Origin: a virus
Lineage: Duplodnaviria > Caudoviricetes
Strand: one strand, 5' to 3'
DNA: 52,738 bases
IMG/VR virus record: IMGVR_UViG_3300047550_006202
Coordinates: 1 to 52,738 of that record
Within the stretch, counting starts at the first letter, position 1. Every line of letters begins with the position of its first letter. Shown here in pieces: positions 4,447 through 49,533 of the stretch. Both the position numbers and the translations under genes were made by a program. The notes under the pieces were generated by a model, which saw nothing but the letters and a program-made list of their open reading frames with translations, did not search any database and was not told the DNA's origin.

Positions 4447-4459
4447 ATCTTTCTATTTT

Positions 4460-5404: not shown

Positions 5405-5443
5405 CTATTTATAAATACGTAATTTTTCATTTCAAAACTATAA

Positions 5444-8400
5444 TTAAATTTTTATACAAGCATTGGCGTTACAGTCTGCCACGTTATACACGGTTCCTAT
5501 GTTCGCTGGTGAAGTCGTTGTAGTGGTGCTAGTTATAGTGTAACATTCTAAACTGTTGTTAGGTACTCCAGTTGGATCAGAGAGCGTGTATACGCCTCCA
5601 ACGGTTAAGGAACTATCTGTTATCCATGTTGATGTTGTACCGTCGCTACATTTTGATACATCATAAGAGTTTCTAAATGGAAGCGTTCTCGTCGGAGATT
5701 TAGTGGGAGTTAACGTAGGAGTTCTTGTGAAAGTGATGGTAGGAGTGGGCGTCACACTTATAGTAGGAGTCACTGTAATGCTTATTGTCGGCGTGACACT
5801 TATTGTAAGCGTTTTAGTTAAACTTATTGTTGGCGTAACGCTTATAGATGCAGTCCTACTTATAGTAGGTGTAACTGTAATCGATATCGTAGGAGTAGCA
5901 GTGATACTTATCGTAGGAGTTTTAGTTATAGACGGGGTTGGAGTTGGAGGTATGTTACAACCCGTGCTTATAACAACAGTTACAGTGGTCTGGCCTATTA
6001 CGAATGTGCTTCCGTTGACGTAAGAACTTCCGTTAACTGTGACTTGATTTACCTTCGAGTAACCGTAAGAGGTTCCCACAGAACAGCCTGTTCCCACAGT
6101 ATCTCCGTTTACAAACTTAGCTCCGCTTTGTCCAGGCGTCCATACAATTCCGCCCCCTGCTCCCTGACCGGCTTGTGTATTGTCTCCGCCTAAGCAATTA
6201 CAGATATCAGTATCTGTTCCTCCAACCCAAACTGTTGCGTAAGATCCTGATACACTTATTTGTTCGCTAAGGGGATCAGACAGCGTCCACGTAAATCTTC
6301 CAGTGCCTCTGTTATAAGAAGTGTATGTTAAAGTAGCGTTATCCACATAATCAGACGTACTCGGTGTGACGGTGACAGTGATAGTGGGAGTAAGCGTAGG
6401 TGTTACACTTATTGTTGGAGTGAGCGTAGGAGTTCTAGTCGGTGTAGGAGTAGGAGCCAATACGCAGGCTGTGTTAATAGAAACTGTTACAGTCGACTGT
6501 CCATCTTGGGTTACCCAACTCTGACCGTTTGATTTCACGTCTCCAGTGGTTGATCCGTGATTTATGGTCATAGAATTATCCTTTGAATGAGCGTAAAGAT
6601 CGCTTATTCCAAGACCCACTGCGCTCTTTGTACCGGCCTCTCCAGATAACCACGTTACGGTAGATAGTATGTAAGATCCGCCTGCTGCGTTAACGCAACT
6701 ATTATCGCTGTAGCTAGTAATAGATGCGAAAGTTATCGTGATATCTTCCCCTACAGCTGAGCTGAGGTTGAAGTAGAACGTATCGTTTAGATTATTGAAA
6801 GACGCAAACGATAGTACTGCGTCCGTCGCGAAATCCGTAGGAGACGGTGTTGGACTTATAGATATTGTAGGAGTTACGGTTTGAGTCAGACTTATAGTTT
6901 TTGTAGGCGTTATACTAATGGTCGGAGTGACACTTATTGTCGGCGTTAAGCTTATCGTAGGAGTTAAGCTTATTGTTTGAGTTAAACTAATAGTAGGGGT
7001 TACTGAGATAGTAGGCGTTAGACTCTTGGTTTGAGTCAAACTTATTGTCGGGGTCAAACTCATCGTCTGAGTGAGACTTATGGTAGGTGTCAAACTTATT
7101 GTCGGGGTCAAACTCATGGTAGGTGTCAAACTCATAGTCTGAGTGAGACTTATGGTAGGTGTCAAACTCACTGTTTGAGTTAGACTTATTGTCGGAGTTT
7201 GAGTTATGCTTATCGTTGGAGTTAAACTAATAGTCTGTGTTACGCTAATCGTAGGCGTTACGCTAATTGTGGGAGTGAGACTGATTGTGACGCTTATCGT
7301 AGGTGTGACACTTATCGTAGGTGTGACGCTTATGGATTTAGTAACACTTATAGTTGGCGTTACAGTAATAGTAGGCGTCAAACTAACTGTAGGCGTCAAA
7401 CTAATTGTTTGAGTTAAGCTTATCGTAGGAGTCAAGCTTATTGTGGGAGTAAGACTTATAGTCTGAGTTACGCTAATCGTAGGAGTAGCGGTTATGCTTA
7501 TAGTTTTAGTAGGAGTGATGCTTATAGTAGGAGTAACTGTGATCGTTGGAGTCAAACTAACTGTAGGCGTCAAACTTATAGTCTTTGTGACGCTTATAGT
7601 AGGAGTTACGCTAATCGTAGGAGTAACAGTGATTGTCGCTGTGACAGTTATGGTTGGCGTTAAACTCTTTGTAGGAGTTTGACTTATCGTAGACGTTACG
7701 CTTATGGTTGGAGTAGCTGTGAGGCTTATTGTCGGAGTGAGACTCTTTGTGGGAGTCAAGCTTATGGTTGGAGTTACGCTTATAGTCGGCGTTACACTTA
7801 TAGTAGGAGTGACGCTGATTGTGGCAGTAACAGTTATAGTGGGAGTCAAGCTCTTTGTCGGCGTTACACTTATAGTGGCCGTTACCGATATCGTAGGAGT
7901 TCCTGTAATGCTGATGGTCGGAGTAACAGTAATAGTGGGCGTAACGCTGATTGTCTGTGTTAAGCTTATTGTAGGGGTCAAACTCTTTGTCGGTGTTAAG
8001 CTTATTGTAGGAGTTATGCTTATAGAAGCAGTTACACTTATACCGGGAGTTACGCTTATGCTTTGAGTCAGACTTATGGTCGGTGTTAAGCTTATTGTAG
8101 GAGTTAAGCTTACAGTTTTTGTTACGGTTATCGTAGGAGTGACTGTGATAGTAGGCGTCAAGCTCTTTGTGGGAGTTTGACTTATCGTTGGACTAACGCT
8201 TATAGTTGGCGTTTGAGATATCGTTGGAGTAACTGATATCGTCGAGGTGACAGTTATGGTCGGAGTTACTGTTATAGTCGGGGTGCTAGTTAACCCAGGA
8301 GTGCTGCTTATTGTAGCTGTTACGCTTATTGTCTGTGTTACACTAATTGTGGGAGTTGCTGTAACTGTGGGAGTTTGAGTGGGAGTTACAGATATCGTAG

Positions 8401-8884
8401 GTGTGTTCGTTACGGTCGGAGTTACAGATATGGTCTCTGTAACGGTGATTGTGGGAGTAGCCGTTATAGAAACCGTTGGAGTGGATGTTACACTTATAGT
8501 AGGAGTAGAAGTTATTGTGATTGTTGGGGTTTTTGTAGCAGTTAAACTAACAGTGGGAGTGTTCGTTATAGTGGGAGTGATACTGATCGTAGGCGTCTTT
8601 GTTATTGACACAGTTGGGGTGTACGAAGGCGTTGTTCCAACGAATCTAGTTACAATGTCTATGTAATTCGTACAACCGTCGCAGTGAGCAGCAACGCGCA
8701 AAATACCCGTGTTAGCGGGAACTTTATTGAACCTATAACCATCTATGAGAAGTTGTCTGGGAATCTTTCTATAGATCGGATATTTAAATCCATCCCAGTC
8801 GCTGAATATATCGCAGTACTCAGAGTCTATCCCTATTCCTGAGAATGATACTGTTACCGATATATATTTTATTTCGTTTCTCAT
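5444..8884 (-). CDS. Long Thr/Pro/Ser hexapeptide-repeat virion protein 3 (1146 aa)
   Basis: Same N-domain (CDIFSD...DGY...VPANT), roughly 590 aa of T-x-T-I-[ST]-[VLI] repeats, two duplicated globular domains and a Cys-rich tail. Confidence 0.85.
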   Translation of the reverse strand: MRNEIKYISVTVSFSGIGIDSEYCDIFSDWDGFKYPIYRKIPRQLLIDGYRFNKVPANTGILRVAAHCDGCTNYIDIVTRFVGTTPSYTPTVSITKTPTISITPTITNTPTVSLTATKTPTITITSTPTISVTSTPTVSITATPTITVTETISVTPTVTNTPTISVTPTQTPTVTATPTISVTQTISVTATISSTPGLTSTPTITVTPTITVTSTISVTPTISQTPTISVSPTISQTPTKSLTPTITVTPTITVTKTVSLTPTISLTPTISLTQSISVTPGISVTASISITPTISLTPTKSLTPTISLTQTISVTPTITVTPTISITGTPTISVTATISVTPTKSLTPTITVTATISVTPTISVTPTISVTPTISLTPTKSLTPTISLTATPTISVTSTISQTPTKSLTPTITVTATITVTPTISVTPTISVTKTISLTPTVSLTPTITVTPTISITPTKTISITATPTISVTQTISLTPTISLTPTISLTQTISLTPTVSLTPTITVTPTISVTKSISVTPTISVTPTISVTISLTPTISVTPTISVTQTISLTPTISITQTPTISLTQTVSLTPTISLTQTMSLTPTMSLTPTISLTPTISLTQTMSLTPTISLTQTKSLTPTISVTPTISLTQTISLTPTISLTPTISVTPTISITPTKTISLTQTVTPTISISPTPSPTDFATDAVLSFASFNNLNDTFYFNLSSAVGEDITITFASITSYSDNSCVNAAGGSYILSTVTWLSGEAGTKSAVGLGISDLYAHSKDNSMTINHGSTTGDVKSNGQSWVTQDGQSTVTVSINTACVLAPTPTPTRTPTLTPTISVTPTLTPTITVTVTPSTSDYVDNATLTYTSYNRGTGRFTWTLSDPLSEQISVSGSYATVWVGGTDTDICNCLGGDNTQAGQGAGGGIVWTPGQSGAKFVNGDTVGTGCSVGTSYGYSKVNQVTVNGSSYVNGSTFVIGQTTVTVVISTGCNIPPTPTPSITKTPTISITATPTISITVTPTISRTASISVTPTISLTKTLTISVTPTISITVTPTISVTPTPTITFTRTPTLTPTKSPTRTLPFRNSYDVSKCSDGTTSTWITDSSLTVGGVYTLSDPTGVPNNSLECYTITSTTTTTSPANIGTVYNVADCNANACIKI
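6840..8630 (-). repeat. Degenerate, mostly 18-bp coding tandem repeat array (TPTISV-type hexapeptide)
   Basis: Continuous repeats such as CTTATAGTAGGAGTTACG with synonymous variation; exact 29-32 bp duplicates spaced 54 and 72 bp apart near 7035-7168. Confidence 0.9.
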
Positions 8885-8888
8885 TTAT

Positions 8889-10700
8889 TTATACCCCACA
8901 AGCTGTTGAGGATGTTTGTTGAACGAATCCGCTGATGTTGGCCACGCTTCCGGCTTTAGCACAGAAAGTCTGTTGCGGGTATATGGTGCTATTGGTCACT
9001 TGGATACCGCTACAGTTCGTATAATTTACAATCGCGTTTCCACTAAAGCTAGTGTTTTTGTATTCCGCGCAGTGGAGTTTTGTTTTATAATACACTGTGA
9101 AATTACCGTTTACGCCTGTCCAAGTATAACTAGAAACACCTGTACCGACTGATGCGTAATAGGTACTAGAATTATAAATTATGTAAGCAGACGATATCAA
9201 ACAACCTACTTGAACCTGTAGATATACATCTGCGTTTATCGTTGCTCCGGTTGGAGTTTGCCCGTATTCGTAACAGGTCAAAGGGGAACCAGCGCAATTG
9301 TTCATCGGATGATTATCGTTGAACAAAGTGATGTACCCTGATCCAGCGGAACCTGCGTTGTTCTTTATTCTCAGAGTCACAAACTTATCCGCTGATGGAG
9401 TGGAACTATTATCTCTTCCTAAGGCCCATCGATTATTTGGCGTAACTGTGATACTCGGTGTACTTGTGGGTGTTAGACTTATCGTAACGGTGGGAGTGAT
9501 CGATATGCTTATAGTAGGAGTCATCGATATGGTATTAGTTACAGTTGGCGTAATTGTGGCCGAAGGTGTCTGAGTCAGGAACGGTGTTAGTGTGGGCGTA
9601 GGAGTTTGAGTGATTGGAGGGGTCTCTGTTGGTGTTACGCTCACTGTCGGTGTTACGCTTATGGTAGCGGTTACGTTCGGAGTTTTTGTGGGAGTTCTAG
9701 TGACGCTCGCAGTCGGGGTGACGGTGGGAGTATTTGATATTGTGACCGTTATCGACGGAGTTACGGCTGGCACCACTCTAGCGTTTCCAGCCAATGCGCA
9801 ATCGTTATAATACGCAGATCCCGTTATCCTACAATCGTTTACAATCGCTATGGGATTTTCAAAACTTTCCTCTATGTAATCGTTTACTGTTATCTTACAA
9901 AGCGCTGGATCGCTCTTTAAACCGCATCCAGGACCGTAATAATTGCTTACGCTATAGTAAGTAGAGTATTCTCCTGGATCTATGGCGTTGAGCGTAACTA
10001 GACCCGTCGATTTGTTAACTTGGAAGAGGTGTGATTGCTCTGTTCCAAAAACTTGCAATGTGTTATAATCGAATTCTCCTGATCCTGCGTAATCGTTGCT
10101 AGTTACGTAGAACGTTTTTGGTGATGTGAGTTCTGAGAATTCGTTACTGTAACCCTTTAATATGGGTCTTTCAGGGAAAATATCTTGATAGTCTTGGTGT
10201 GTTAGTACAACTACACCGTGAGAGTACATTATGTTTCCAACGTGAAGATTATCGTTAGCAGAGTCTACTATATTTCCGTTTCCGTCGTCAGATAAAAAAG
10301 CTCCGTTATCAGAGTAAACGAAGGTGTTTGGGGATATTTTTTCTCCGAACACTGTTCTTGGAATGGACATCACCGATATCCTTGAATTAGATTCGGTTGG
10401 AAAATATCTATTCTCGTATTCGTAAGTGCCTGATGCCGCTGTAGATTGTTGGTAGGAATCCCACGCGCTTCCAGAACCCAATATGGATCCTGAGATGTGG
10501 TTCATGTAGTAAAGTTGGCGTATCGTTCTGTAAACTAGTATCTGATAGTTAACAGATCCCGATACGCTTACTTGACCGTTTACGCCCTTAGTATACTCAA
10601 TGTTTTTTTCTCCTCCACAACTAAGTTGTTGGGAATACTTGAGTTGTATCGGAATGCTTGATATGTCCGAACTTTGTATTGTATTCCTGCATAGACTCAT
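8889..10700 (-). CDS. Baseplate/tail protein N-domain fused to Ig-like and TPT-repeat regions (repeat protein 4)
   Basis: The first ~170 aa are paralogous to the N-part of 10704..11744 (SIPRTVFGEKISPNTF; GNIMYSHGVVVLT), followed by beta-rich domains, TPT repeats and a Cys-rich end. Confidence 0.8.
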   Translation of the reverse strand: MSLCRNTIQSSDISSIPIQLKYSQQLSCGGEKNIEYTKGVNGQVSVSGSVNYQILVYRTIRQLYYMNHISGSILGSGSAWDSYQQSTAASGTYEYENRYFPTESNSRISVMSIPRTVFGEKISPNTFVYSDNGAFLSDDGNGNIVDSANDNLHVGNIMYSHGVVVLTHQDYQDIFPERPILKGYSNEFSELTSPKTFYVTSNDYAGSGEFDYNTLQVFGTEQSHLFQVNKSTGLVTLNAIDPGEYSTYYSVSNYYGPGCGLKSDPALCKITVNDYIEESFENPIAIVNDCRITGSAYYNDCALAGNARVVPAVTPSITVTISNTPTVTPTASVTRTPTKTPNVTATISVTPTVSVTPTETPPITQTPTPTLTPFLTQTPSATITPTVTNTISMTPTISISITPTVTISLTPTSTPSITVTPNNRWALGRDNSSTPSADKFVTLRIKNNAGSAGSGYITLFNDNHPMNNCAGSPLTCYEYGQTPTGATINADVYLQVQVGCLISSAYIIYNSSTYYASVGTGVSSYTWTGVNGNFTVYYKTKLHCAEYKNTSFSGNAIVNYTNCSGIQVTNSTIYPQQTFCAKAGSVANISGFVQQTSSTACGV

Positions 10701-21479: not shown

Positions 21480-21526
21480 ATTGATAAATATCGGGTGTTC
21501 AATTTATTTATTTGTGACTTGGTTTC

Positions 21527-28423: not shown

Positions 28424-29395
28424 ATGGGAACACCTAGAGCTGAAATAACGAATCCTGAAATACAGAAGCTGGTGTTGGGATTACTCGAATCTCAATTGGG
28501 TAAAGGTAAGCCCGATAAGTTGGGTAACTACACGTTTTATTGTCCTGTATGCAAGCACAAAAAACCCAAGCTTGTAATTAACATCAAGTCAGGCGTTTAC
28601 AACTGTTGGACGTGTCACCCTCCCACCAAGGGAAGAAATCCAGTATCTCTGTTTAAAAAACTTTCAGTCCCCGGAAAAGTAATTTCGGAGATGAAGCAGT
28701 ACTTTGGAATGAAGACTACAAAGGAAGACATAGAATCTCAACCTATTGTGGCAGAATTACCCAAAGAATATGTTCCTATAACATTTTCTAAAACTGATCT
28801 GTACGAAAAGAAAGTTGTCTCATATTTAAAATTAAGGGGATTATCGGAGAGCGACATACTAAAGTACCAAATAGGATACTGTGTAAACGGTCGTTACAGG
28901 GATCGAGTGATCATCCCGTCGTTCGATTCCCAGGGAAAATTAAATTATTTTGTGGCAAGATCTATAGACCCAAACAAAAAACCCGCTTACGACGCGCCTA
29001 GCGTAAAGAAGACTGATATCATTGGTTTCGAATACTACGTTAATTTTAATGTGCCTGTAGTCCTTTGTGAGGGTGTGTTCGATGCTATGGCTATAAAAAG
29101 GAACGCCATTCCACTGTTTGGTAAGACAATTCCTAAAGCACTCATGATGAAACTTGTACAATCTCAAGTAAAAACTATATATTTAGCGTTGGATAAAGAC
29201 GCATTAAAAGAAAGTTATGCTTACGCAGAGGAATTGATAAATATGGGTAAGGAAGTTTATTTTTTAGATATGGACGATAAAGACCCGTCTATTCTTGGAT
29301 TCTCTAAAATGGTAGAAAAACTGCAACAAGCTAAACCCATGAAAACAGAGGATCTATTTTTTAAGAAGATGGAATTGATATTGGCAACTGCATGA
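28424..29395 (+). CDS. gp61: DNA primase (DnaG/T4 gp61-like; Zn-finger plus TOPRIM)
   Basis: CPVC..H...CWTC zinc finger; YLKLRG; RVIIP; LCEGVFD; LALDKD; KDPS. Confidence 0.92.
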   Translation: MGTPRAEITNPEIQKLVLGLLESQLGKGKPDKLGNYTFYCPVCKHKKPKLVINIKSGVYNCWTCHPPTKGRNPVSLFKKLSVPGKVISEMKQYFGMKTTKEDIESQPIVAELPKEYVPITFSKTDLYEKKVVSYLKLRGLSESDILKYQIGYCVNGRYRDRVIIPSFDSQGKLNYFVARSIDPNKKPAYDAPSVKKTDIIGFEYYVNFNVPVVLCEGVFDAMAIKRNAIPLFGKTIPKALMMKLVQSQVKTIYLALDKDALKESYAYAEELINMGKEVYFLDMDDKDPSILGFSKMVEKLQQAKPMKTEDLFFKKMELILATA

Positions 29396-32300
29396 ATGAA
29401 ATAGTAAAGTCTAAGTTACATCTATCTAAGATAGATAAAATACACCACGTATCCGACGTACACATTAGGAATTACAAGCGACACACAGAATATAATCGCG
29501 TGTTCAATAGGTTGTACAATAGGATAAAAGCAAATCTAACTAAGAACGATCTTATAGTTCTCACCGGTGATATAGTACATTCTAAAACGGACGTCACGCC
29601 CGAACTATTCAATGAGGTTCAAAAGTTCCTGAACGGTCTGTGTGACATTGCACCGGTGCTCATGATACCTGGAAATCACGACACGAACCTCAATAACTCC
29701 CACAGACTCGACGCGTTGACTCCGATAGTAAATGCTATGGCGTCATCTAAGCTAGAGTACTATAAAGATTCCGCCATAATTCGCTTAGGTAATGTGGATT
29801 TTTACCACTGGTCTGTCATGGACGATGAACAGGACTATCCATCTGTTATGGAAAATTCCCAAGTAAACATCGCGCTATATCACGGTCCCGTAAACAATTG
29901 TACGACTGAAGCGGGGTTCGTCATAGAGAACGAGAGCATGACTGTGGAAAAATTCCGAGGCTTTGATATGGTCCTTTTGGGCGACATACACAAAACGCAA
30001 TTTCTAAACCCACAAAAAACAGTTGCATATCCAGGATCCTTAATACAACAGAACCACGGAGAAGAACGCAAGCACGGTTATTTGCTGTGGGAAGTAGAAA
30101 GCAGGTTCGTAGAGTTCGTTGAAGTAGAAAACGATACAGCGTTTTACACTATAGACGTCGATGCGGGTTTGCATAAACCCATAGACGAAACGCTTCCAGA
30201 GAATTTGTACCTTCGCGTAAGATACAAGAACACCGATCAAGCAACTCTGCGCGATATAGTAGATAGCTTGAGAAAACAGAAGAACATTGTTGAACTCACA
30301 ACGCAAAGAATAAGTACTTTTACGTCTAGTGAAAAGACACTCGATGCATCTAAAACTTTGGACTTTAGATCAATCGAACAACAAAAGAAACTTCTGACGG
30401 ATTTTCTCAAACAGAAGCACGATTTGAAACAAGAGGAGCTTGATAGAGTTCTTGAGATCAACGAACAGGTCAACAAATCTTTGAAGAAAAGCGAGGTACC
30501 AAGGAACTCTATGTGGATCCCTAAGCGCTTCGAGTTCGAGAACATGTTCAGCTACGGAAAGAACAATTTCGTCGATTTTACGAACATGAAAGGCACTTTT
30601 GGGCTTTTTGCGCCTAACGCTAGCGGAAAATCTACGTTGCTCGATTCTCTGACGTATTGCATATTCGATAAGTGTACCAAGACGAACCGTGGTCACCAAG
30701 TCATGAACTCAAGTAGCAATACTTTTTACTGTAAATTGAATTTTGAGCTGAACGGGCTAGATTATTTTATAGAGAGAAACGCTAAGCGCCAAAATTCTGG
30801 AAACGTTAGGGTAGAGGTCGATTTCTACTATGTGGACGAAGAAGGAAACAAGATTTCTCTAAACGGAAAAGACCGATCGGACACTAACAATAGCATAAAA
30901 AACTTATTGGGCAACTACGAGGATTTTGTTTTAACTACGCTATCCACACAGAGCAACAACACTGGGTTCATAGATATGAATCAGAAGGACCGCAAGGATC
31001 TATTGAGTCAATTTATGGATATAGGTGTCTTTGAAGAGCTGTACAATATAGCTAACGAGACAGCGAGGGAAAATGCCGCTGTGCTTAAACACTTCCAGAA
31101 AACTGATTACGAATCAAAACTCTGCGAGATAGAGCGCAATTTAGAACAATACAACAAAGATCTAAAGAAACAAAACTTAGAAAAGATCCACGCAGATTCA
31201 GAAAAGTCCGCTTTGACTGATAAGTTAGAGAAACTTATAAAACAACTTGAGTATGTCGACACTTCTATAATAGACGAAAAGGCAATAAGCAATAGTATAG
31301 TATCTTCGAAGAGCGAATTAATAGATCTTAATAAGGCAAAACATATACTCACTAACGAATTACACGCTCTTGCTATAGAGATAGATGAGTTACATTTTAG
31401 AGTTGATTCTGTGGATGAAAAATATCTAAAGAAACAATTAGAGGAATGTAAACAACTCGTAACTGAATTCAATAATGTTAACGTAGAAAAACAAAAGCTA
31501 TCAGAGCACATCTCCCATAAATTGGATAAAATGGGAAAATTGAAAGAGTTGGAATACGATCCAAACTGTAAGTATTGTATGGGTAACGTATTTGTGAAGG
31601 ACGCTATAACAGCCAAAGAACAGATAGCAGCAGATAGAGAAAAGCTTCAAGTATTAGAAAATAAACACAAGGAACTTGCTTCTAGTGTAAAAAAGTGTGC
31701 ATTGATCGAGCAATCTCGAGATTCTTACGAAGAAGTCAAAAGAATCTTAATGACCCTTAAGAATAAGTCTTCTGAATTGTCGTTGAAACTTGAAAGAGTC
31801 ATCAATAAAATAAAATCAGAGGAGGATTCAATAAAATTGGGCGAAGAGAAACTGCAACTTAGAAAAAAACAGCTCTCTTCCATTAAGAAAAACGAAATAA
31901 CAAATAAAAAGATAGAGGACACCAAGCGCGATATTAAAGTGCTTGATGCGGAAATAAAGCTATTGAATGCATCTCTATCAGATCTAAACGCGCAGATAAA
32001 GATAACTGAGAAGAGCATAGAGGATTTAAGAACTGAGATTGATAAGCGTAAAGGCCTTGAAACCTCACATCAGCTCTATCAATACTATTTGGAAGCTACT
32101 CATAGGGACGGAATACCCCACGAAGTTATATCTGTAACAATACCTCAAATAGAAGAGGAAGTGAACAACATCCTATCTCAATTGGTAGACTTTAGGATAG
32201 TATTTGAAACTGACGATAAGAACGTCAATGCCTACATAGCCTACAGCGAAGAGCGTTTTTGGCCTTTAGAGCTTACCTCCGGGATGGAAAAATTCGTCTC

Positions 32301-32550
32301 GTCCCTAGCAATTCGTACAGCGCTCATCAATATATCCACCCTTCCCAGGCCCAATTTTATTGCGATAGATGAGGGATTTGGATCATTGGACAAATCTAAC
32401 CTTGGATCCATGTCGCTGCTCTTCGATTACCTAAAGACCCAATTCAAATTCATAGTCATAATATCCCACATTGACTCTATGCGTGACGTGGTAGATTCCT
32501 ACATAGAAATCCACAAAGTAAAAGACAGATCATTAGTGAACCACGAGTAG
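29392..32550 (+). CDS. Fused Mre11/SbcD phosphoesterase and Rad50/SbcC ATPase (gp47-gp46 fusion)
   Basis: DVH, GD, GNHD, GDIH, YPGS in the N-part; Walker A APNASGKS, Zn-hook CKYC, signature TSGME and Walker B IDEGFGSLD in the C-part. Confidence 0.93.
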   Translation: MNEIVKSKLHLSKIDKIHHVSDVHIRNYKRHTEYNRVFNRLYNRIKANLTKNDLIVLTGDIVHSKTDVTPELFNEVQKFLNGLCDIAPVLMIPGNHDTNLNNSHRLDALTPIVNAMASSKLEYYKDSAIIRLGNVDFYHWSVMDDEQDYPSVMENSQVNIALYHGPVNNCTTEAGFVIENESMTVEKFRGFDMVLLGDIHKTQFLNPQKTVAYPGSLIQQNHGEERKHGYLLWEVESRFVEFVEVENDTAFYTIDVDAGLHKPIDETLPENLYLRVRYKNTDQATLRDIVDSLRKQKNIVELTTQRISTFTSSEKTLDASKTLDFRSIEQQKKLLTDFLKQKHDLKQEELDRVLEINEQVNKSLKKSEVPRNSMWIPKRFEFENMFSYGKNNFVDFTNMKGTFGLFAPNASGKSTLLDSLTYCIFDKCTKTNRGHQVMNSSSNTFYCKLNFELNGLDYFIERNAKRQNSGNVRVEVDFYYVDEEGNKISLNGKDRSDTNNSIKNLLGNYEDFVLTTLSTQSNNTGFIDMNQKDRKDLLSQFMDIGVFEELYNIANETARENAAVLKHFQKTDYESKLCEIERNLEQYNKDLKKQNLEKIHADSEKSALTDKLEKLIKQLEYVDTSIIDEKAISNSIVSSKSELIDLNKAKHILTNELHALAIEIDELHFRVDSVDEKYLKKQLEECKQLVTEFNNVNVEKQKLSEHISHKLDKMGKLKELEYDPNCKYCMGNVFVKDAITAKEQIAADREKLQVLENKHKELASSVKKCALIEQSRDSYEEVKRILMTLKNKSSELSLKLERVINKIKSEEDSIKLGEEKLQLRKKQLSSIKKNEITNKKIEDTKRDIKVLDAEIKLLNASLSDLNAQIKITEKSIEDLRTEIDKRKGLETSHQLYQYYLEATHRDGIPHEVISVTIPQIEEEVNNILSQLVDFRIVFETDDKNVNAYIAYSEERFWPLELTSGMEKFVSSLAIRTALINISTLPRPNFIAIDEGFGSLDKSNLGSMSLLFDYLKTQFKFIVIISHIDSMRDVVDSYIEIHKVKDRSLVNHE

Positions 32551-32552
32551 TC

Positions 32553-32560
32553 ATATTTAT
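32553..32560 (+). promoter_or_regulatory. Putative late promoter ATATTTAT (representative + strand copy)
   Basis: Same motif at 1072, 1184, 35770, 41432, 45738, 47822 and 51132, each upstream of a + strand start. Confidence 0.7.
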
Positions 32561-32564
32561 ACGT

Positions 32565-34280
32565 ATGAAGACGACTGTTTTACTCCCCGGAGGATTTAAA
32601 CCTCCCCATGTGGGACACCTACAACTCGCAAACGCTTACGCCGCTGATCCCAGTGTTGAAAAAGTGGTGGTGCTTGTTGGTCCATCTGAGAGAGACGGAA
32701 TAGGCAGAGATCAATCTTTGGCAGTTTGGAAACTTCTTCCCACTCACCCTAAAGTGAAAGTCGTTGCATCCGATATAGACAATCCGATGGAAGCCGCGTT
32801 CGAAACAGTATTGAACTTGGATAAATCAGCCACCGGTCAGTACGCTATGGGAGCTAGTTCAAAGGGATCTGATGCTCAAAGATCTAAGGTCTTTGTTGAC
32901 TATCTAAGAAAACACAAAACAGTTCCAACTCCTAGAGACAAAAAGATGACGCCTAAAGGCGTAAATCCAATTTTACTTCCAATAGATACTAGACCTCTAT
33001 TATATAAAGGTCGTAACGATGGATTAAACGGAACTGGAATAAGTGCAAGTGTGCTTAGAAAAGATCTCAAATCAGGAGACATAAAGAACTTCGCCACAAA
33101 CTATCCAGGAGTTCCTCAAAAAATTATTCAAGACATTTTCGATATACTCTCAAAAAAAAAGCTAAAAACTCCTACTAAAAAGTTAAGAGAGTTCGCTAAC
33201 ATTTTAGAGGGCGTAGCCGTATTTAGAACAGCCATAAGGCAATTGCTTACAGAGGGTGGAGCAGCTGGACACATGGCCCACCCATTTGATATCCCTACGG
33301 TGAAAAACGGATCTGATCTCATCAAAGTTTTTAAAGAAACTGAGACTTATCTCAAGAACAACGAAGTTCCTCTAAAAATAGACGGCATAAATTCTTCCAT
33401 TAGGCTTGTAAACACCGATAGTGGTAAAGAATTTGCGTTGGACCGTGGGTCTAACAAACCGCTTGACGTGAAGGGTGTAACAACTAAAGACTTAAAGAAC
33501 AGGTTCGAAAAGGGCCATGGAATGATAAAGATCGGTGGCACCGTTCTTAAGATATTCAACGAGGCATTACCGTCTGCTAAATCTGCGTTGAGCAAATTAG
33601 GACTCATGAAGAATCCTAACATCATGCTCAACATAGAATACGTAGAAGGAAAGTCTAACGTACAGAAGTACGAAAAGAACTTCATAGTGATACACAACTT
33701 GCTTGAAGTGAAACAATCAAAAGAGGGAAAGAGATCTATAGGCGAAATGTCTTATTCTAAAAACGATCTTCAAGCTTTAGTAGATGCTTTGAAACCGGTA
33801 GCTAAGAAATACGGATTCGAAGTATTTAACATGATACCCGCAAAAATGGAAAAAGGTTCTAACATAGCAACTGAATTGAGTAAATCGTACACGATTAACT
33901 ACGCCAAAGGTAAGAAAGAAACTAAAAGTTTGGATCAGTGGCTAAAGGATGCAAAGAATACTAAAGGTCAGAAACTGAAACTGAAAGACGGCAAAACTGT
34001 CGATGCGTTGAGCAAACAGGTTTTTATGGCGATAAACGGAGGTCAAAGCGTTCAAGACATGATCGCGGATCCAAAAGATATCAAAATTGCTGTAGACTCT
34101 TTCGTCATATACTTAGCTACAGAAAAATTAGGGGAAGCGATACTCAAATCCATGAGTTCTCCCCTTGGAAACGTTAACGATCAAGAGGGTATAGTGGTTA
34201 GAAACCCAAAAGTTTACGATAAACCCTATAAGATCACTGGATCTTTCATAACTAGGGGAATGCAATCACAATTCCGATAA
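32565..34280 (+). CDS. Fusion: HxGH nucleotidyltransferase (cytidylyltransferase/NMNAT-like) plus ligase-like covalent nucleotidyltransferase domain
   Basis: GGFKPPHVGH and GISASVLR in the N-part; after LLTE|GG come KIDG, NIEY, EGIVVR and YKITG (ligase motifs I, III, IV, V). Confidence 0.75.
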   Translation: MKTTVLLPGGFKPPHVGHLQLANAYAADPSVEKVVVLVGPSERDGIGRDQSLAVWKLLPTHPKVKVVASDIDNPMEAAFETVLNLDKSATGQYAMGASSKGSDAQRSKVFVDYLRKHKTVPTPRDKKMTPKGVNPILLPIDTRPLLYKGRNDGLNGTGISASVLRKDLKSGDIKNFATNYPGVPQKIIQDIFDILSKKKLKTPTKKLREFANILEGVAVFRTAIRQLLTEGGAAGHMAHPFDIPTVKNGSDLIKVFKETETYLKNNEVPLKIDGINSSIRLVNTDSGKEFALDRGSNKPLDVKGVTTKDLKNRFEKGHGMIKIGGTVLKIFNEALPSAKSALSKLGLMKNPNIMLNIEYVEGKSNVQKYEKNFIVIHNLLEVKQSKEGKRSIGEMSYSKNDLQALVDALKPVAKKYGFEVFNMIPAKMEKGSNIATELSKSYTINYAKGKKETKSLDQWLKDAKNTKGQKLKLKDGKTVDALSKQVFMAINGGQSVQDMIADPKDIKIAVDSFVIYLATEKLGEAILKSMSSPLGNVNDQEGIVVRNPKVYDKPYKITGSFITRGMQSQFR

Positions 34281-34285
34281 TTCTC

Positions 34286-35203
34286 ATGAAAGATACACAA
34301 AAAATAGCGATAATAAGGGACTTTTTAAAGTATTGTTACCATGAGCTTCAGATAAAGAAAGCCCCTAAGATACGTTTACACCACGATAATAAAGCAGTAA
34401 AAAATCAAGCCAGTTTTGGAGGCTACTATCCAGAAGGAAGAAGCATTCAAGTGTACATGAAGAATAGAAATTTGGCTGATGTTCTTAGAACATTAGGTCA
34501 CGAACTAGTTCATCACAGTCAACACGAGATAGCTGGTATAGACGTGATGGATGGTCAGACAGGATCTGATTACGAAAACGAAGCAAACAGCAAAGCTGGA
34601 GTTCTACTAAGGAACTATGGAAAGATGAATCCCATGATTTACGAATCAATAGTTTACATGGAGATGATAAACGAAGAAGACACAAAAGTCTATCAGATAT
34701 ACTGTGACATGGACGGGGTGTTGTGCGATTTCGATGCGCAATTCGAACACTACTTTGGAACATCTCCGTCAGAATACAAAAAAGAAAAAGGCATACCAAG
34801 TTTTAAGAACGCAATAGACGAAGCGGGAAAAGATTTTTGGGCTAACATGCCATGGACTTCTGCAGGACAAAGACTGTGGGAAAAGATAGGAGAATACGGG
34901 GTGATAATACTCACGGATCCTTCTAACTTTACAGAATCTAAAAAAGGAAAACTTGAGTGGATAAACCTCCATCTTTCTCCAATGCCGAAAAGCGTGATAT
35001 TCAAATCCACCGGTAAAAAACACGAGGTGCTTCAAGGAATGAATCCGAATGACATAGAAAAATGTGTTCTTATAGACGATTCAAAACTCAATACACGACC
35101 TTGGGAAGCCGCGGGAGGCATAGCATTTGAACACAGCGACAATAACCCCACTCACTATCAAATAGACACATTAGATTTAAAAGATAAAGAAGAAAAGTCA
35201 TGA
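34286..35203 (+). CDS. Fusion: HExxH Zn-metallopeptidase-like domain plus HAD 5'(3')-nucleotidase-like phosphatase
   Basis: GHELVH...ENEAN; after MINE come YCDMDGVLCDF, ILT, K..W, LIDD and WEAAGG. Confidence 0.8.
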   Translation: MKDTQKIAIIRDFLKYCYHELQIKKAPKIRLHHDNKAVKNQASFGGYYPEGRSIQVYMKNRNLADVLRTLGHELVHHSQHEIAGIDVMDGQTGSDYENEANSKAGVLLRNYGKMNPMIYESIVYMEMINEEDTKVYQIYCDMDGVLCDFDAQFEHYFGTSPSEYKKEKGIPSFKNAIDEAGKDFWANMPWTSAGQRLWEKIGEYGVIILTDPSNFTESKKGKLEWINLHLSPMPKSVIFKSTGKKHEVLQGMNPNDIEKCVLIDDSKLNTRPWEAAGGIAFEHSDNNPTHYQIDTLDLKDKEEKS

Positions 35204-35769
35204 AAGAATCAAATTTAAGTAGAGAATTTAATAAAAGAGAAGTACAGAGAATGAGAAACCTAATCTCCGGAAATGTAGGAGATAGGACACGGGTACAATC
35301 AGGATGGGAAAAACAAACCTTAGATAAAAAGGAGGGGGATGTTTGGGAGGAGAACGGAAAGACTTGGACCATTAAACGCGGTATAAAACAAAGCGTTACA
35401 AAGCACGATTCTATAAAGAAGCTTGCTCATTTTCCGATAGCATGTCCAAAGTGTAAAAAACACATGAGGGCTGATGATTTAAACAAAAAAATGTATTCTA
35501 TACATTCCATGTGTTTGGATTGTGTCATAGAAATGGAAGCAGAATTAAAGAAGCAAGGAAAATTCGAGAGCTACAACCTGGACATGCTTAAGAGCAACGA
35601 AAAAGTATACTTACAGGACGTGGAAAGCGCGTTAGAAGCGTGGTACACTGACAACGAAACCTTTGTAACTGAGAACGGGCAGATAGAATCTTGGGTAGGT
35701 GGAAATAAAAAAGTAGTCTACGACGCAGTAAAAGAGCAATTGAACCGAATAAAAAGTCAACAGGAGTAG
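35200..35769 (+). CDS. Hypothetical zinc-finger protein
   Basis: GDVWEENGKTWTIKRG followed by CPKC...CLDC; ATGA overlap with the upstream gene. Confidence 0.75.
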   Translation: MKESNLSREFNKREVQRMRNLISGNVGDRTRVQSGWEKQTLDKKEGDVWEENGKTWTIKRGIKQSVTKHDSIKKLAHFPIACPKCKKHMRADDLNKKMYSIHSMCLDCVIEMEAELKKQGKFESYNLDMLKSNEKVYLQDVESALEAWYTDNETFVTENGQIESWVGGNKKVVYDAVKEQLNRIKSQQE

Positions 35770-37159: not shown

Positions 37160-37387
37160 ATGGCAGTAAACACTCAAACAACCTGGAGAAAAACACTGGT
37201 GGGGAATCTGGCGACATTCTGTTTGATGATGGCGATGTTTTTCAACCCTCTTGGATTCGACGTGCTTTTCAAGACCGTGATGGACTTGACAAACAGCTAT
37301 TGGATTACGGATTTTATTTTCTATGGCGCTGCACTATTATTTCTTGGATTATATATTTTATTGAAATCGTATTCTAAAAAACTATGA
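37160..37387 (+). CDS. Small two-TM membrane protein (holin-like size)
   Basis: Two hydrophobic helices flanking FFNPLGFD. In-frame ATG at 37160 preferred over TTG 37130. Confidence 0.6.
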   Translation: MAVNTQTTWRKTLVGNLATFCLMMAMFFNPLGFDVLFKTVMDLTNSYWITDFIFYGAALLFLGLYILLKSYSKKL

Positions 37388-38964
37388 AGCACCTCAAAAA
37401 AGTGATCGAAAAATTGATAACAGAAGAGTCTGAAGGACTTTGGAACAATATAAACAAGAAAAAGAAAGAGGGGAGACCTCCGGCTAGAAAGGGTTCGGAA
37501 GCTCATGAAAAAGCTGTAGAAGCAGGAGAAAAGATAAACAAAGCCGCAAACGAAGAGAAGGCTAAATTCACAGACAAGCACGACGATAGTCCTAAACTCA
37601 AAGGCGATCAGAAGAAGCTTCCCGATCAATTACAGGCCCAAATAGTTAAAAAAGAGAATCACGAAGGCGGAGATCATGAGGTTTCTATGGCCAATAACAG
37701 CTTAAGATCCATAGTCAGCAACGCGAGTCAACTCATAGACAAAGTGGGGCAAGACGAAAAAGACATTCCCGCTTGGATACAGGATCACATAGCGAAGGCA
37801 GAAAACTACATAGAACAGGCCAACAGTAACTATCACGAGTACGGCGAAGAAGATCACGAAGAATTGCCAACAGGCAATATGAAACTTATGAGTGCTCTTC
37901 AAGAGATTTACGACGAAGACGATATCGAAGAGGAAAAACTTGAAATTGGAGACGTCGTTTACGTTAGATATCCTAATCAGTACCAAGGCGAACAAGGAGA
38001 AATCGTAGAACTTAGCCGTGACGGCTCTTTCGTAACAGTGGAGATGCCCAACGGAGATACTGTTTCCATGCACTCTAGCGACGTAGAGTTGGCCAACGAT
38101 TCTGATTTTGACGACAATTTTGGCTACGACGATGAAGACTGGGATCTTGCCAGTGACGATAAACACCCTGGCGGTTTCCCTGGCATGACAGAGGCCAGAG
38201 ACATCAATGACCCTGCTCGCATGGCCTCAGCAGCTCGTATACATGCATTCAAACAAAGACAAGCGCAACCAAAACAATCTCTCGCGCGATTCGCGGCACA
38301 GAGAGATAACAATTTTGAAATAGAACAAGAGCTAAAAGCCCTAAAGAGAGAACGCTTCCAGTTAATGAGAGACATGGAACAGGAAGCCGAACCAGAAGGA
38401 GGTCCGATAGCGGACGAATACGGAGAAAGACTCAATCAAATAGATCAACAGATAGCAGATCTTGAGGCTCAACTTATCGGTCAAGGTTTAGAAGAAGATA
38501 CAATACAAGAGGCAAATGTCCCCAGCAACATTTTAGAGTTCGCTAAAAGAAAGGGCGTCTCCGCTCTAGTCCAAAAAGTCGCTCGTTGGGCCGAGAAAGC
38601 AGGAAAAAGAATCGTGGGAGGAACAGCGATAGGTAAAAACTATAACGCTCTAGTGTTAGATCTAACTTACAACGGTGGAGAGATTTACATAGATTGCTTC
38701 AAAAAACAGGTAAGAGTCAACGATCAATACGTAGACGATTACGATTCCTTTGAGTATGCTTTAGATCCCAGCAACTTCGACTCAGATGATGACTACGATT
38801 ATAACGACGGAATCACCTCAGACCCTGATCCACATCCAGCCGGTTTTCCAGGCATGACAGAAAAAACTGAGATCATAAAAAAGATCTTACAAAAAGAATC
38901 GAAGATGATTCAAGAAAGACAGATTGCAAAAACCCTTGTTAAAAACATAATCAAATCCCGTTGA
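37384..38964 (+). CDS. Modular internal head protein
   Basis: Small modules (GLWNNI, DHEVSMA, KOW/SH3-like, coiled coil) separated by xxE sites; two FPGMTE linkers. Confidence 0.75.
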   Translation: MKHLKKVIEKLITEESEGLWNNINKKKKEGRPPARKGSEAHEKAVEAGEKINKAANEEKAKFTDKHDDSPKLKGDQKKLPDQLQAQIVKKENHEGGDHEVSMANNSLRSIVSNASQLIDKVGQDEKDIPAWIQDHIAKAENYIEQANSNYHEYGEEDHEELPTGNMKLMSALQEIYDEDDIEEEKLEIGDVVYVRYPNQYQGEQGEIVELSRDGSFVTVEMPNGDTVSMHSSDVELANDSDFDDNFGYDDEDWDLASDDKHPGGFPGMTEARDINDPARMASAARIHAFKQRQAQPKQSLARFAAQRDNNFEIEQELKALKRERFQLMRDMEQEAEPEGGPIADEYGERLNQIDQQIADLEAQLIGQGLEEDTIQEANVPSNILEFAKRKGVSALVQKVARWAEKAGKRIVGGTAIGKNYNALVLDLTYNGGEIYIDCFKKQVRVNDQYVDDYDSFEYALDPSNFDSDDDYDYNDGITSDPDPHPAGFPGMTEKTEIIKKILQKESKMIQERQIAKTLVKNIIKSR

Positions 38965-47833: not shown

Positions 47834-48874
47834 ATGAAAAACATAACAAACCTGTACATTCAACTGAACGAGGGAAAGATTAGCAAGGAATTCTTTATGA
47901 AGACCGCTAGGATGCAATTCCCCCAGTACATCAGTCCCACCCTTTCTTTTAGGGATACTGTAAACGTACTTAAGGGTAAGAGACTCATTCAAGAGGCGCA
48001 GACCCTAACAGTCGATCAGGTCATAGATCGCCTGAATCCCTACCAATTTAGAAACGGAGTACAAAAAGAACTTGCAAAGGTACAAAATCCTACCCGAGAA
48101 GACATTCACCGCGCGAATCAAAAAGTAGCCAAGAAGCTTCAAAAGAATCCCACGGCTTACGAAGACCAGATGTTTGCAAATGCAAAAGACATCGAAAAGC
48201 GCGACGATAAACTTCACACCAGCGAAGTTAAAGTAGGTTCTCAGAGCGTTGATAAGGGTAATGCGATGAAAGTCAAGAAAAAACTTGAGTCAGCTAACAC
48301 CCGCGCCACTAAGAAAGAGAACAAAAAAGGCAAACCCCGTGGAGTTAAGGTCATGACCTACAAGGCTAAGACCGCAAAGGGCATTTCAGAGACCATGCCC
48401 GCAACAGGCAAAGAGAAAGTCCTTAAGGTTCTTCACGAGAACATGTACGGCGCTACGGTTCCAACTCCCCACGATTGGCACGTAGGCCGCGAGGTGAATA
48501 CGCCTAAAGGCATAGGAACCATAAAAGAAGTTCACGGAGGCACGTTGACTGTTGAAATGAAAGACGGGAAAATGGTAGAATATCAAATGAACGTGGTGGA
48601 AAAACACACGAATTCTGCTAAGCAAGGGAGCAATATGCAACAGAAATCTTCTTCGGAAATGGACAATAAAGCAGATAAACTGAAGGAGATTGCTAAGACT
48701 CTTAAAAATCACATCAAAAAGATGCGTGAAGGAGAAATGATGCGATCTAAAAAACCAAATGCTGCCGGTAAAAGAAACGTCATAGTCGTTGATGATCCAA
48801 AAGCAAAAGCGGCGGCAATTCAAGCTAATTATGAGCCAGCAGGTAAAGCTGAAGCTCCGCCCACTAATCAATGA
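47834..48874 (+). CDS. Basic modular head protein with SH3-like module
   Basis: ATATTTAT at 47822-47829; LNE, IQE, LHE and MRE sites; VGREVNTPKGIGTIKEVHGGTLTVEM module. Confidence 0.75.
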   Translation: MKNITNLYIQLNEGKISKEFFMKTARMQFPQYISPTLSFRDTVNVLKGKRLIQEAQTLTVDQVIDRLNPYQFRNGVQKELAKVQNPTREDIHRANQKVAKKLQKNPTAYEDQMFANAKDIEKRDDKLHTSEVKVGSQSVDKGNAMKVKKKLESANTRATKKENKKGKPRGVKVMTYKAKTAKGISETMPATGKEKVLKVLHENMYGATVPTPHDWHVGREVNTPKGIGTIKEVHGGTLTVEMKDGKMVEYQMNVVEKHTNSAKQGSNMQQKSSSEMDNKADKLKEIAKTLKNHIKKMREGEMMRSKKPNAAGKRNVIVVDDPKAKAAAIQANYEPAGKAEAPPTNQ

Positions 48875-48900: not shown

Positions 48901-49533
48901 ATGCCAAAAGAACTCCTCATAGAGTACTCGATATTCAAACCCAAAATAGAACTTAGGGAAGGGTTTAAATCTTCTAACGGCAACATGATCGTTAGCGGAC
49001 AGGTACAAGCCTGTGATAAGCCCAACGCAAACAAGCGCATATACCCCTACGAGACTCTTAAGAAGCAAGTCGAATTGTATTTGGATGGACCCATAAGAGA
49101 GAATCGTGCGTTGGGAGAATTGGACCACCCAGAGTCATCGGTGATAAACCTTAAGAATGTTTCTCACAACATAAAGAGCCTTTGGTGGGAAGATAAGGAC
49201 CTCTACGGAACGGTTGAGATACTTCCTACGCCATCGGGCAACATACTTAAGGAATTGTTCAAAAACGGTATCACCGTGGGAATATCTTCTAGAGCACAGG
49301 GTTCAACAAGTCCAATAGGCGAAGGATTGGTAAAGGTCGAAGACGATCTTGAAGTGATATGTTGGGACTTTGTATCCCAACCATCAACCTACGGTGCGTA
49401 CATGAAACCCATGAACGGTATAAACGAGTCTATAGATTACAATCAAAGAATCGTAAATAATTATAGTAGAGCGAACGATCTGATGAGGAGCATAATATGC
49501 GAGATGTCGGGCGTTTGTTGCGTATCAAAATAA
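48901..49533 (+). CDS. gp21: Prohead core protease (T4 gp21, peptidase S77/U9)
   Basis: NANKRIYP, ALGELDHP, VSH, GISSRAQG, WDFVSQPS. Confidence 0.95.
   Translation: MPKELLIEYSIFKPKIELREGFKSSNGNMIVSGQVQACDKPNANKRIYPYETLKKQVELYLDGPIRENRALGELDHPESSVINLKNVSHNIKSLWWEDKDLYGTVEILPTPSGNILKELFKNGITVGISSRAQGSTSPIGEGLVKVEDDLEVICWDFVSQPSTYGAYMKPMNGINESIDYNQRIVNNYSRANDLMRSIICEMSGVCCVSK

Follow-up and report, generated by a model that had tools for sequence, protein, structure and literature searches.

Introduction

ATP-dependent RNA ligases, among them T4 Rnl1 (gp63) and Rnl2, the Naegleria enzyme NgrRnl, archaeal Rnl3 and fungal Trl1, share a nucleotidyltransferase fold and present their catalytic residues in the order KxDG, an acidic residue, EG and Lys. 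Here we describe a phage gene whose product is predicted to contain a domain with the same fold and the same order of motifs. The gene, open reading frame (ORF) 571, lies in the IMG/VR virus record IMGVR_UViG_3300047550_006202 (Duplodnaviria; Caudoviricetes), which was analysed over its whole length of 52,738 nt (hereafter the window). The ligase-like domain (C-domain) of ORF571 differs from the RNA ligases listed above in having a GGxxGHMxHPFD element, a 160-residue insert and a motif V that reads K-I-T-G, and in being fused to a HIGH nucleotidyltransferase (NTase). That N-terminal partner (N-domain) has its fold, HxGH and ISxxxxR in common with NadM, NadD, NadR and PPAT, but is joined to a ligase-like domain and not to a Nudix or kinase domain.

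The known head cargo of T4, IPI–III and Alt, is loaded by capsid-targeting sequences (CTS) and trimmed by the protease gp21, and to our knowledge no ligase-type enzyme is among it. In the part of PMC9026906 drawn on here, the 10–19 residue propeptides of T4 internal proteins are CTS, with residues 4 and 7 needed for targeting and residues 8 and 10 for gp21 processing, Asp in place of the Glu at the cut prevents processing in T4, and a variety of proteins may be brought into T4-like heads by CTS. The ORF571 family resembles this cargo in having an aliphatic-x-Glu site and a gp21-type protease, and its stand-alone relatives include ones whose short leaders are aromatic at positions 4 and 7. However, the putative site in ORF571 is internal, between two enzyme domains, and there is no N-terminal leader.

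Polyvalent proteins (Iyer et al. 2017, PMC5512222) combine disparate enzyme domains in one polypeptide, as does the ORF571 family, and the domain shuffling (GNAT, Tad3, amidase, DUF6934, Pol-beta NTase) and nearby zincin seen in ORF571 relatives also recall them. The pairing of a ligase with a HIGH NTase is not described in the sections of that paper used here, and neither ORF571 nor the adjacent gene, ORF305, is fused to MuF, portal or another head anchor. Like the Pnkp plus Rnl1 healing and sealing system of T4, the window has a ligase-fold enzyme adjoining a HAD phosphatase, encoded by ORF305. Unlike in T4, no kinase was found in two complete relatives, the HAD domain is of the NT5C type, and it is missing from most relatives.

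A first-pass annotation of the window had read ORF571 and ORF305 as two cleavable polyproteins that deliver four enzymes for RNA repair or nucleotide-based counter-defence. Translation of the ORFs and coordinate arithmetic placed both genes and the motifs quoted for them where it had put them. Two things are new here, a branch of the ligase superfamily and the fusion in which it occurs, which has a signature of T4-type processing. Our preferred reading, to which we give a probability of about 45%, is that ORF571 is a two-enzyme protein whose ligase module would be freed in the capsid and delivered with the DNA.

Domains and motifs of ORF571

The features of ORF571 and the sequence just ahead of it are as follows (pLDDT, predicted local distance difference test).

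32553..32560, + strand: ATATTTAT motif, candidate promoter-like element, 4 nt ahead of the ORF571 ATG
32565..34280, + strand: ORF571, 571 aa, HIGH nucleotidyltransferase, linker and ligase-like domain
32565..33158, + strand: N-domain, residues 1–198, NMNAT/PPAT type with HxGH and ISxxxxR
33159..33260, + strand: disordered linker, residues 199–232 (pLDDT <50), ending L-L-T-E230/G231-G (the slash marks the border)
33252..33257, + strand: E230/G231, candidate prohead-protease cleavage site at a conserved border
33261..34277, + strand: ligase-type lysine nucleotidyltransferase domain by predicted fold and motifs, residues 233–571

The C-domain has GHMxHPFD as its N-terminal element, within the longer GGxxGHMxHPFD. 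Motif I is KIDG (K271, position 33375), and it is followed by NIEY (residues 356–359, including E358), by H377, and, after an insert of approximately 160 residues, by motif IV, EGIVVR (E541, position 34185), and motif V, YKITG (residues 555–559, containing K556-I-T-G). When 38 relatives sharing 42–71% identity were aligned, K271, D273, G274, E358, H377, E541, G542, K556, T558 and G559 were invariant. K271, D273, G274, E541, G542, K556 and G559 were also invariant in 28 stand-alone relatives (33–65% identity), and E358 and H377 are nearly invariant across the two alignments. The order E358, H377, E541-G542, K556 is conserved, and the catalytic motif residues recur in a distant homologue from Microcystis phage Mel-JY01.

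Sequence searches with residues 225–571 returned no match in Pfam, NCBIfam or the PDB, and the C-domain was recognised by fold comparison only. Folded alone with the 28 stand-alone relatives as input, it gave a model with a pLDDT of 92.7 and a predicted template modelling score (pTM) of 0.89. When this model was used to search 48,161 chains, ranks 1–31 were all RNA ligases, DNA ligases or capping enzymes. The best match was T4 Rnl1 (9do4_B, Z 8.2, 176 residues aligned, root mean square deviation (rmsd) 3.9), and others included the DNA ligase Pmar-Lig (Z 7.2), NgrRnl (Z 7.1), T4 Rnl2 (Z 6.8), archaeal Rnl3 and the ligase domain of fungal Trl1 (both Z 6.7). Comparison of the full-length model likewise placed the C-domain among ligases and capping enzymes, and T4 Rnl1 was also the top Foldseek match (E 9.5e-3). 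In fold and catalytic motifs, the C-domain thus bears out the ligase call of the first-pass annotation.

Several features of the C-domain count against our preferred reading. The fold similarity is modest (Z 8.2), and Foldseek with the C-domain alone returned nothing at E<=1e-3. Motif V has a single Lys, and those of Rnl1 and Rnl2 have two. There is neither an OB domain nor an Rnl1-type C-terminal domain, as ORF571 ends approximately 12 residues past motif V. Membership of the Rnl1 family itself is ruled out, there being no sequence match and, besides the missing C-terminal domain, the single-Lys motif V, the 160-residue insert and the unique GHMxHPFD element to set the C-domain apart. It also lies outside the Rnl2, gp30 and LigA families and, by threshold, outside DUF6267. 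On the model, we conclude that the C-domain is a new, divergent family of covalent (lysine-AMP) nucleotidyltransferases with a fold nearest to those of ATP-dependent RNA ligases. It would be adenylylated at Lys271 and may join strands. We are confident of the folds and motifs of ORF571 as assigned here.

In the N-domain, GGFKPPHVGH occupies residues 9–18, with HxGH as H15-V-G-H18, and GISASVLR occupies residues 158–165, with S160 and R165 belonging to ISxxxxR. The AlphaFold model of full-length ORF571 (pLDDT 86.8) matched NadM over this region (2qjt_B, Z 11.6, 159 aligned, rmsd 3.2), as well as PPAT (4nah_A, Z 11.3) and archaeal NMNAT (1f9a_A, Z 10.7), and Foldseek returned NadM 2qjo at E 2.1e-4. 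A family profile matched PPAT in the PDB at E 0.0035 with both HxGH and ISxxxxR aligned. By sequence, phrog_395 cytidyltransferase was matched at E 8.3e-4, and matches to the NCBIfam adenylyltransferases were marginal (E 0.003–0.06, far under the cut-offs). The sequence evidence is weak but consistent, and together with the model it clearly points to the NMNAT/PPAT class, as the first-pass annotation had proposed from the motifs. NMNAT and PPAT are inseparable by fold, because their Z scores (11.6 and 11.3) are tied.

As the best N-domain folds are NMN/NaMN adenylyltransferases, ORF571 could instead be a small-molecule enzyme of counter-defence, acting on NAD+-related or signalling nucleotides by, for example, rebuilding NAD+ or adenylylating a metabolite. 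The nucleotidase in neighbouring ORF305 is consistent with such a role, as are a GNAT fusion in the relative P0244 and the make-up of P0310, in which the NTase/ligase pair is joined to the Thoeris inhibitor Tad3 (E 8.6e-29); Tad3 binds ThsB, according to the portion of PMC13728456 used here. We nevertheless find it improbable, since every fold match of the C-domain is a polynucleotide ligase or capping enzyme, NMNAT and PPAT are tied as fold matches of the N-domain, the NAD+-dependent ligase LigA comes only at rank 50 with a poor score (Z 3.6) and the Tad3 domain occurs in only 1 of the 25 proteins scanned. An NAD+-dependent ligase with its own NAD+ regenerator was also considered and given low weight because of the same LigA score. 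A part in tail-fibre attachment, like that of T4 gp63, was considered as well.

The conserved Glu/Gly-Gly border

Our preferred reading turns on the end of the linker, where the codon for E230 is at 33252–33254 and that for G231 starts at 33255. E230 and G232 are invariant in the alignment of 38 relatives. When fetched family proteins were searched for the element [G/Q/A/S]Gxx[G/S]HxxHx[F/Y/L/W][D/E/N], it was present in 220/386. In 19 of these it directly follows the initiator Met (a Met-Gly-Gly start), in 7 it begins at residues 4–8, and in 194 it begins past residue 8. Of the 194 internal occurrences, 184 have Glu, 9 have Cys and 1 has Met as the residue before the border (P1), and the residue two places ahead of it (P3) is always aliphatic (Leu 156, Ile 29, Val 9). 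The border of the Mel-JY01 homologue reads IIAE/GGLGGHMNHPFD.

The 9 proteins with Cys at P1 are those with an HNH-type insert. An in-frame insert of approximately 260 aa splits GGAAGH in P0061, P0100, P0106, P0115, P0243, P0251 and P0269 and at loci L027 and L028. It contains a Cys-rich, zinc-finger-like stretch (weak ROS/MucR match) and an HNH-like motif, lies between duplicated GGA(A/G)G(H) copies, ends in LLLC/GG and is without canonical intein ends. It looks like a homing endonuclease aimed at the most conserved codons of the gene.

Short leaders of 3–34 residues precede the border in 38 proteins. All but one of them (37/38) end in Glu, and P3 is aliphatic in 38/38. Aromatic residues are found at both positions 4 and 7 in 12/38 leaders, where approximately 0.7 would be expected from composition, and in 5/330 other N-termini. 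Leaders were found only on stand-alone or ligase-first relatives. The E/GG junction also occurs in 9 relatives ahead of a second, unrelated module that begins GGN(V/A)F and has weak matches to Pol-beta NTases. The window encodes a candidate processing enzyme, a gp21-type prohead protease (48901..49533, + strand; phrog_207 head maturation protease, E 4.3e-47), which itself has L-I-E8 near its N-terminus. Two further ORFs in the window open with a short leader ending in aliphatic-x-Glu, namely 37384–38964 (+), with MKHLKKVIEKLITE/, and 47834–48874 (+), with MKNITNLYIQLNE/G; they are possibly further substrates of the prohead protease or head cargo.

Other observations weigh against processing and packaging. 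Elsewhere in the family proteins, [LIV]xE/G[GASN] sites number 46, against 45 in shuffled sequences, and a general E/GG 'junction code' was rejected on this count. In ligase-first proteins, the linker to the NTase has no positionally fixed site, with 35/55 having some [LIV]xE. ORF571 itself begins with MKTTVLLPGGF, which is strand 1 of the NTase fold, and so has no N-terminal targeting leader; entry of the uncut protein into the prohead is therefore unexplained. Weighing both sides of this sequence pattern, we put the chances that E230/G231 is a processing site at about even, and we regard the ligase module as plausible head cargo, with somewhat lower confidence. The first-pass annotation had proposed cleavage in both ORFs; its LLTE/GG border is backed by the predominance of Glu at P1 (184/194) and the disordered linker, and its second border, MINE/ in ORF305, lies in a variable stretch.

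The wider family and its domain order

Of 7999 candidates scored, 1221 were related to ORF571 at E<=1e-3, and the family comprises 1011 representatives (50% identity) at the same threshold. Its annotation is only 'hypothetical' or 'cytidylyltransferase-like'. When whole ORF571 was used to query cultured phages with tblastn, 16 records were returned, those of 15 Lak phages, which matched over the N-domain only, and that of Mel-JY01. The same search with a ligase-first relative found none, and the Mel-JY01 protein as query returned two more relatives, in uncultured huge phages.

The domain order of 266 fetched family proteins, a sample biased by the full-length query, was read with hidden Markov models for the C-domain and for two variants of the N-domain, with the following result.

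NTase variant 2 then ligase: 96 proteins
NTase variant 1 then ligase: 56 proteins
Ligase alone: 53 proteins
Ligase then NTase variant 1: 42 proteins
Ligase then NTase variant 2: 13 proteins
NTase alone: 6 proteins

A HIGH NTase is thus present in 207/260 proteins that have the ligase domain. As two NTase variants each occur in both orders with the ligase, a functional partnership is indicated.

Further fusion partners among the relatives are GNAT, Tad3 with DUF5661, amidase, DUF6934 and a Pol-beta-like NTase. The 1002 aa P0310 consists of NTase, DUF5661, Tad3 Thoeris-inhibitor domain (E 8.6e-29), ligase-like domain and Pol-beta-like module, and two of its domain borders read LLxE/GG. Among P0173, P0254 and P0034, DUF6934 is found both at the C-terminus of ORF305-type proteins and between NTase and ligase in ORF571-type proteins, which ties the two gene families together.

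By profile alignment, the C-domain appears to be divergent and a sister family to DUF6267 of Pfam, an uncharacterised and mainly viral family. ORF571 has no DUF6267 match at E<=0.1, and is therefore under the gathering threshold, and 20 stand-alone relatives have none at E<=1. However, when the C-domain was aligned with a DUF6267 protein using hhalign (probability 60%, E 8.6e-5, 299 columns), HPxD, KxDG, EYV, EGxV and Lys were in register. In P0303 and P0312, true DUF6267 (E 3.8e-38) holds the place of the C-domain behind a window-type N-domain. In the nearest Atlas clusters, DUF6267 was found in 21–24% of members. No paper on DUF6267, Mel-JY01 or 'cytitidyltransferase' was found in the library searched, and the parts of PMC9503650, PMC7824862 and PMC5512222 used here contain no description of a HIGH-NTase/ligase fusion. 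The cyanophages S-PM2 and P-TIM68 have 'cytidyltransferase-like' proteins that were matched weakly by structure in BFVD (E about 1e-3). On these matches, they could be remotely homologous to the fusion; no link to it was found by BLAST.

ORF305 and conservation of the locus

ORF305 begins 5 nt past the ORF571 stop codon and is followed by ORF189.

34286..35203, + strand: ORF305, 305 aa, putative zinc peptidase plus HAD nucleotidase
34286..34660, + strand: putative ImmA/IrrE-like (M78) gluzincin domain, H72-E-L-V-H76 and E97-N-E-A-N
34688..35200, + strand: HAD phosphatase of the NT5C 5'(3')-deoxyribonucleotidase type, D141-M-D143-G-V
35200..35769, + strand: ORF189, 189 aa, Cys-rich (CxxC...CxxC; CPKC...CLDC)

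Relatives of ORF305 at E<=1e-3 numbered 612 among 1395 candidates, and the contigs that carry them match in length those with ORF571 relatives. The N-half has HELVH (H72, position 34499), and H72, E73, H76, E97, N98, A100 and N101 are invariant in relatives. Its own match is weak (phrog_87 metallo-protease, E 0.0031), as are those of its relatives, of which 10/38 have Peptidase_M78 (E<=0.01) and 6/38 have DUF6782. From the conserved residues it is a putative ImmA/IrrE-like zinc peptidase.

The C-half has DMDGV (D141, position 34706) and matches phrog_2643 at E 8.7e-25. A match to Pfam NT5C (E 3.2e-4, 21.1 bits) is under the 24.8 cut-off, but NT5C was found in 24/38 relatives, and a cytosolic deoxyribonucleotidase in the PDB was matched at E 0.0018. 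Matches on the Pnkp side are marginal, namely phrog_415 polynucleotide kinase (E 0.0013) and HAD_SAK_2 (E 0.0018, 19.1 bits where the cut-off is 27.5; 2/38 relatives). By these matches, the C-half is an NT5C-type HAD nucleotidase and not convincingly of the Pnkp 3'-phosphatase type that the first-pass annotation had in mind.

The MINE/ border between the halves is not conserved. A few residues ahead of it, I118-Y-E120 is invariant. As stand-alone peptidases, too, continue into another helix after this sequence, it is not necessarily a place where a cut is made.

To examine linkage, 80 related IMG/VR loci were searched with tblastn (E<1e-5). The ligase domain is present in all by construction, and the remaining counts are lower bounds, as many contigs are short.

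Ligase domain: 80/80 loci
ORF189 downstream: 73/80 loci; no other gene downstream of the ligase-like gene is as constant
SbcDC upstream: 44/80 loci
Peptidase domain following: 40/80 loci
Large terminase: 26/80 loci
Window-type N-domain: 11/80 loci
HAD: 9/80 loci

Among 38 peptidase ORFs recognised, 28 are stand-alone (125–149 aa), 9 are HAD fusions and 1 is truncated by the end of its contig. With the peptidase in 40/80 loci and HAD in 9/80, the four enzymes are not a fixed unit, and ORF305 appears to be an accessory, lineage-variable companion on the same transcript as ORF571.

The scheme of the first-pass annotation, in which both ORFs are cut by the head protease into four injected enzymes that form an RNA-repair kit with the HAD domain as 3'-phosphatase, draws support from the ligase fold and the LLTE/GG site, from the HAD_SAK_2 (below cut-off) and phrog_415 matches, from the invariant I118-Y-E120 past the peptidase domain and from the Pol-beta NTase-like module fused to the ligase domain in some relatives. 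RlaP, a Pol-beta NTase, accompanies RNA ligases in repair according to the part of PMC7824862 used here. Nevertheless, the HAD domain is far nearer to NT5C nucleotidases, the peptidase and HAD were found in only 40/80 and 9/80 loci, the MINE/ border varies, and ORF305 lacks a targeting-like leader. No kinase was found either. Polynucleotide-kinase families were sought in two relatives with a completeness rating of 100%, namely G001 (183 kb), the carrier of a 94%-identical ORF571 homologue, and G002 (174 kb). The only match was the ORF305-type HAD in G001, and G002 had none, in keeping with the earlier remark that the kinase of Pnk/Rnl systems is lacking. We consider the complete scheme improbable and an RNA-repair role as first proposed quite unlikely.

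The zinc peptidase might itself cut the ORF571 border, as in polyvalent proteins processed by their own zincins. The peptidase gene follows the ligase gene in half of the loci, and zincin-like peptidases are put forward as likely processors of multidomain injected proteins in the part of PMC5512222 drawn on here, which provides the precedent. However, the other half of the loci, including all of the more distant ones, keep E/GG without a detectable peptidase gene, and an aliphatic P3 with Glu at P1 follows the logic of gp21. This explanation is very improbable.

Gene context and the upstream element

PHROG scans indicate that the window is a contig of a T4-like myophage. Beyond the genes already listed, its main features are as follows.

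About 12–24 kb, − strand: baseplate genes
28424–29395, + strand: primase
29392–32550, + strand: SbcD-SbcC, single polypeptide
42193, + strand: large terminase
43795, + strand: portal

The 1052 aa SbcD (gp47-like)/SbcC (gp46-like) ORF matches phrog_100 over residues 14–369 (E 2.8e-35) and phrog_77 over residues 249–1050 (E 2.2e-54). Pfam and PHROG searches gave no family match for ORF189, and several small ORFs on the + strand lie between ORF305 and the terminase region. At 3124–10700 (−), four successive ORFs of 440, 314, 1146 and 603 aa all match phrog_15511, an unknown family. The 1146 aa ORF has four repeats, and the G+C content of the stretch is 0.43–0.45, against 0.31–0.40 further on. These are probably tail-fibre-like proteins.

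The position of ORF571 bears on a strong alternative to a packaged enzyme, namely that the ligase-like domain works in the cytoplasm, sealing nicks or joining ends in replication and recombination in place of a gp30-type DNA ligase missing from this lineage, and that the xEGG stretch is a structural or regulatory feature of the N-terminus of the domain. The gene directly follows primase and SbcD-SbcC, a replication and recombination neighbourhood that is also seen, as SbcDC upstream, in 44/80 loci. G001 and G002 lack matches to PF01068 (ATP-dependent DNA ligase), PF01653 (NAD+ ligase) and PF09414 (Rnl2-type RNA ligase). Absence of another ligase and the position after primase and SbcDC fit plain cytoplasmic nick sealing, and so count against a packaged enzyme. 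Exactly one copy of the C-domain was found in each of G001, G002 and a third relative, G003, and DNA ligases are among the top folds, Pmar-Lig (Z 7.2) trailing Rnl1 by about 1 Z. However, G003 has a PF01068 ligase as well as the C-domain, so the two are not simple alternatives, and the absence of other ligases rests on three Pfam models and three genomes. The C-domain has no OB domain. The fold can do without Glu at P1, as 19 proteins have the initiator Met in its place. A purely cytoplasmic role would also leave unexplained why stand-alone forms have capsid-targeting-like leaders. We consider a purely cytoplasmic role somewhat unlikely. The absence of kinase families and of another ligase, together with the gene position, also argues against a classical kinase/phosphatase/ligase route of tRNA repair.

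The ATATTTAT motif ahead of ORF571 has 16 copies in the window against 5.5 expected, and 0/100 shuffles reached 16. It lies in the sense orientation 4–25 nt ahead of the starts at 1084, 32565, 35792, 45763 and 47834 (+) and at 12415, 21479 and 25869 (−), which include genes of the head cluster (45763, 47834) and of the baseplate region (12415, 21479, 25869). In 40/74 related loci, the homologous gene has an exact copy <=45 nt ahead of its called start. As it also precedes head and baseplate genes, is enriched and is kept in 40/74 loci, ATATTTAT is probably a regulatory element shared with structural genes, and ORF571 may be expressed late. The first-pass annotation had both ORFs following this motif; it is present ahead of ORF571, and none was found in the start region of ORF305.

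Identification of ATATTTAT as a late promoter of the T4 type was rejected. The T4 late-promoter word, TATAAATA, has 18 copies in the window against 5.2 expected and is antisense before + strand genes, a point against our preferred reading. Five copies of ATATTTAT, at 1072, 32553 and 47822 (+) and at 21484 and 2809 (−), end exactly 4 nt before a start codon. If ATATTTAT is −10-like, those five mRNAs would be leaderless or nearly so.

Discussion

The folds, motifs, domain linkage and border conservation seen here, together with the presence of a gp21-type protease gene, would most probably be explained by the following course of events. The prohead protease would cut ORF571 after Glu230 and free the ligase module, whose new N-terminus would be the conserved GGxxGHMxHPFD element. 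The module would travel in the head and enter the next cell alongside the DNA. There it would be adenylylated on Lys271 and would rejoin broken RNA or DNA ends. Its HIGH NTase partner may make or recycle a nucleotide cofactor.

A bolder version, which we think unlikely, is that the ligase module is a capsid-loaded zymogen, in which the free GGxxGHMxHPFD N-terminus made by the head protease's cut at Glu230 would complete the active site, and that ligase and NTase partner are injected together with the genome. Such an enzyme might be the 'missing ligase' of T4-like phages without gp30, and the remote 'cytidylyltransferase' genes found in cyanophages could possibly be counted with it. Were this version true, it would provide the first example of a strand-joining or RNA-repair enzyme that is delivered by the virion.

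With its ligase fold recognised, a gene conserved in environmental T4-like phages now has a function that can be tested, and the ligase superfamily gains a new branch, marked by an unusual element at the N-terminus. The interest of the family lies chiefly in its being large, unannotated and directly testable. If the C-domain is the only ligase of its lineage, it explains how DNA is sealed in these phages without a gp30 homologue. If the processing signature is real, strand-joining enzymes join the short list of proteins carried in T4-like heads, and a head-borne ligase, if true, would bear on how phages respond to RNA- and DNA-cutting defences in the first seconds of infection.

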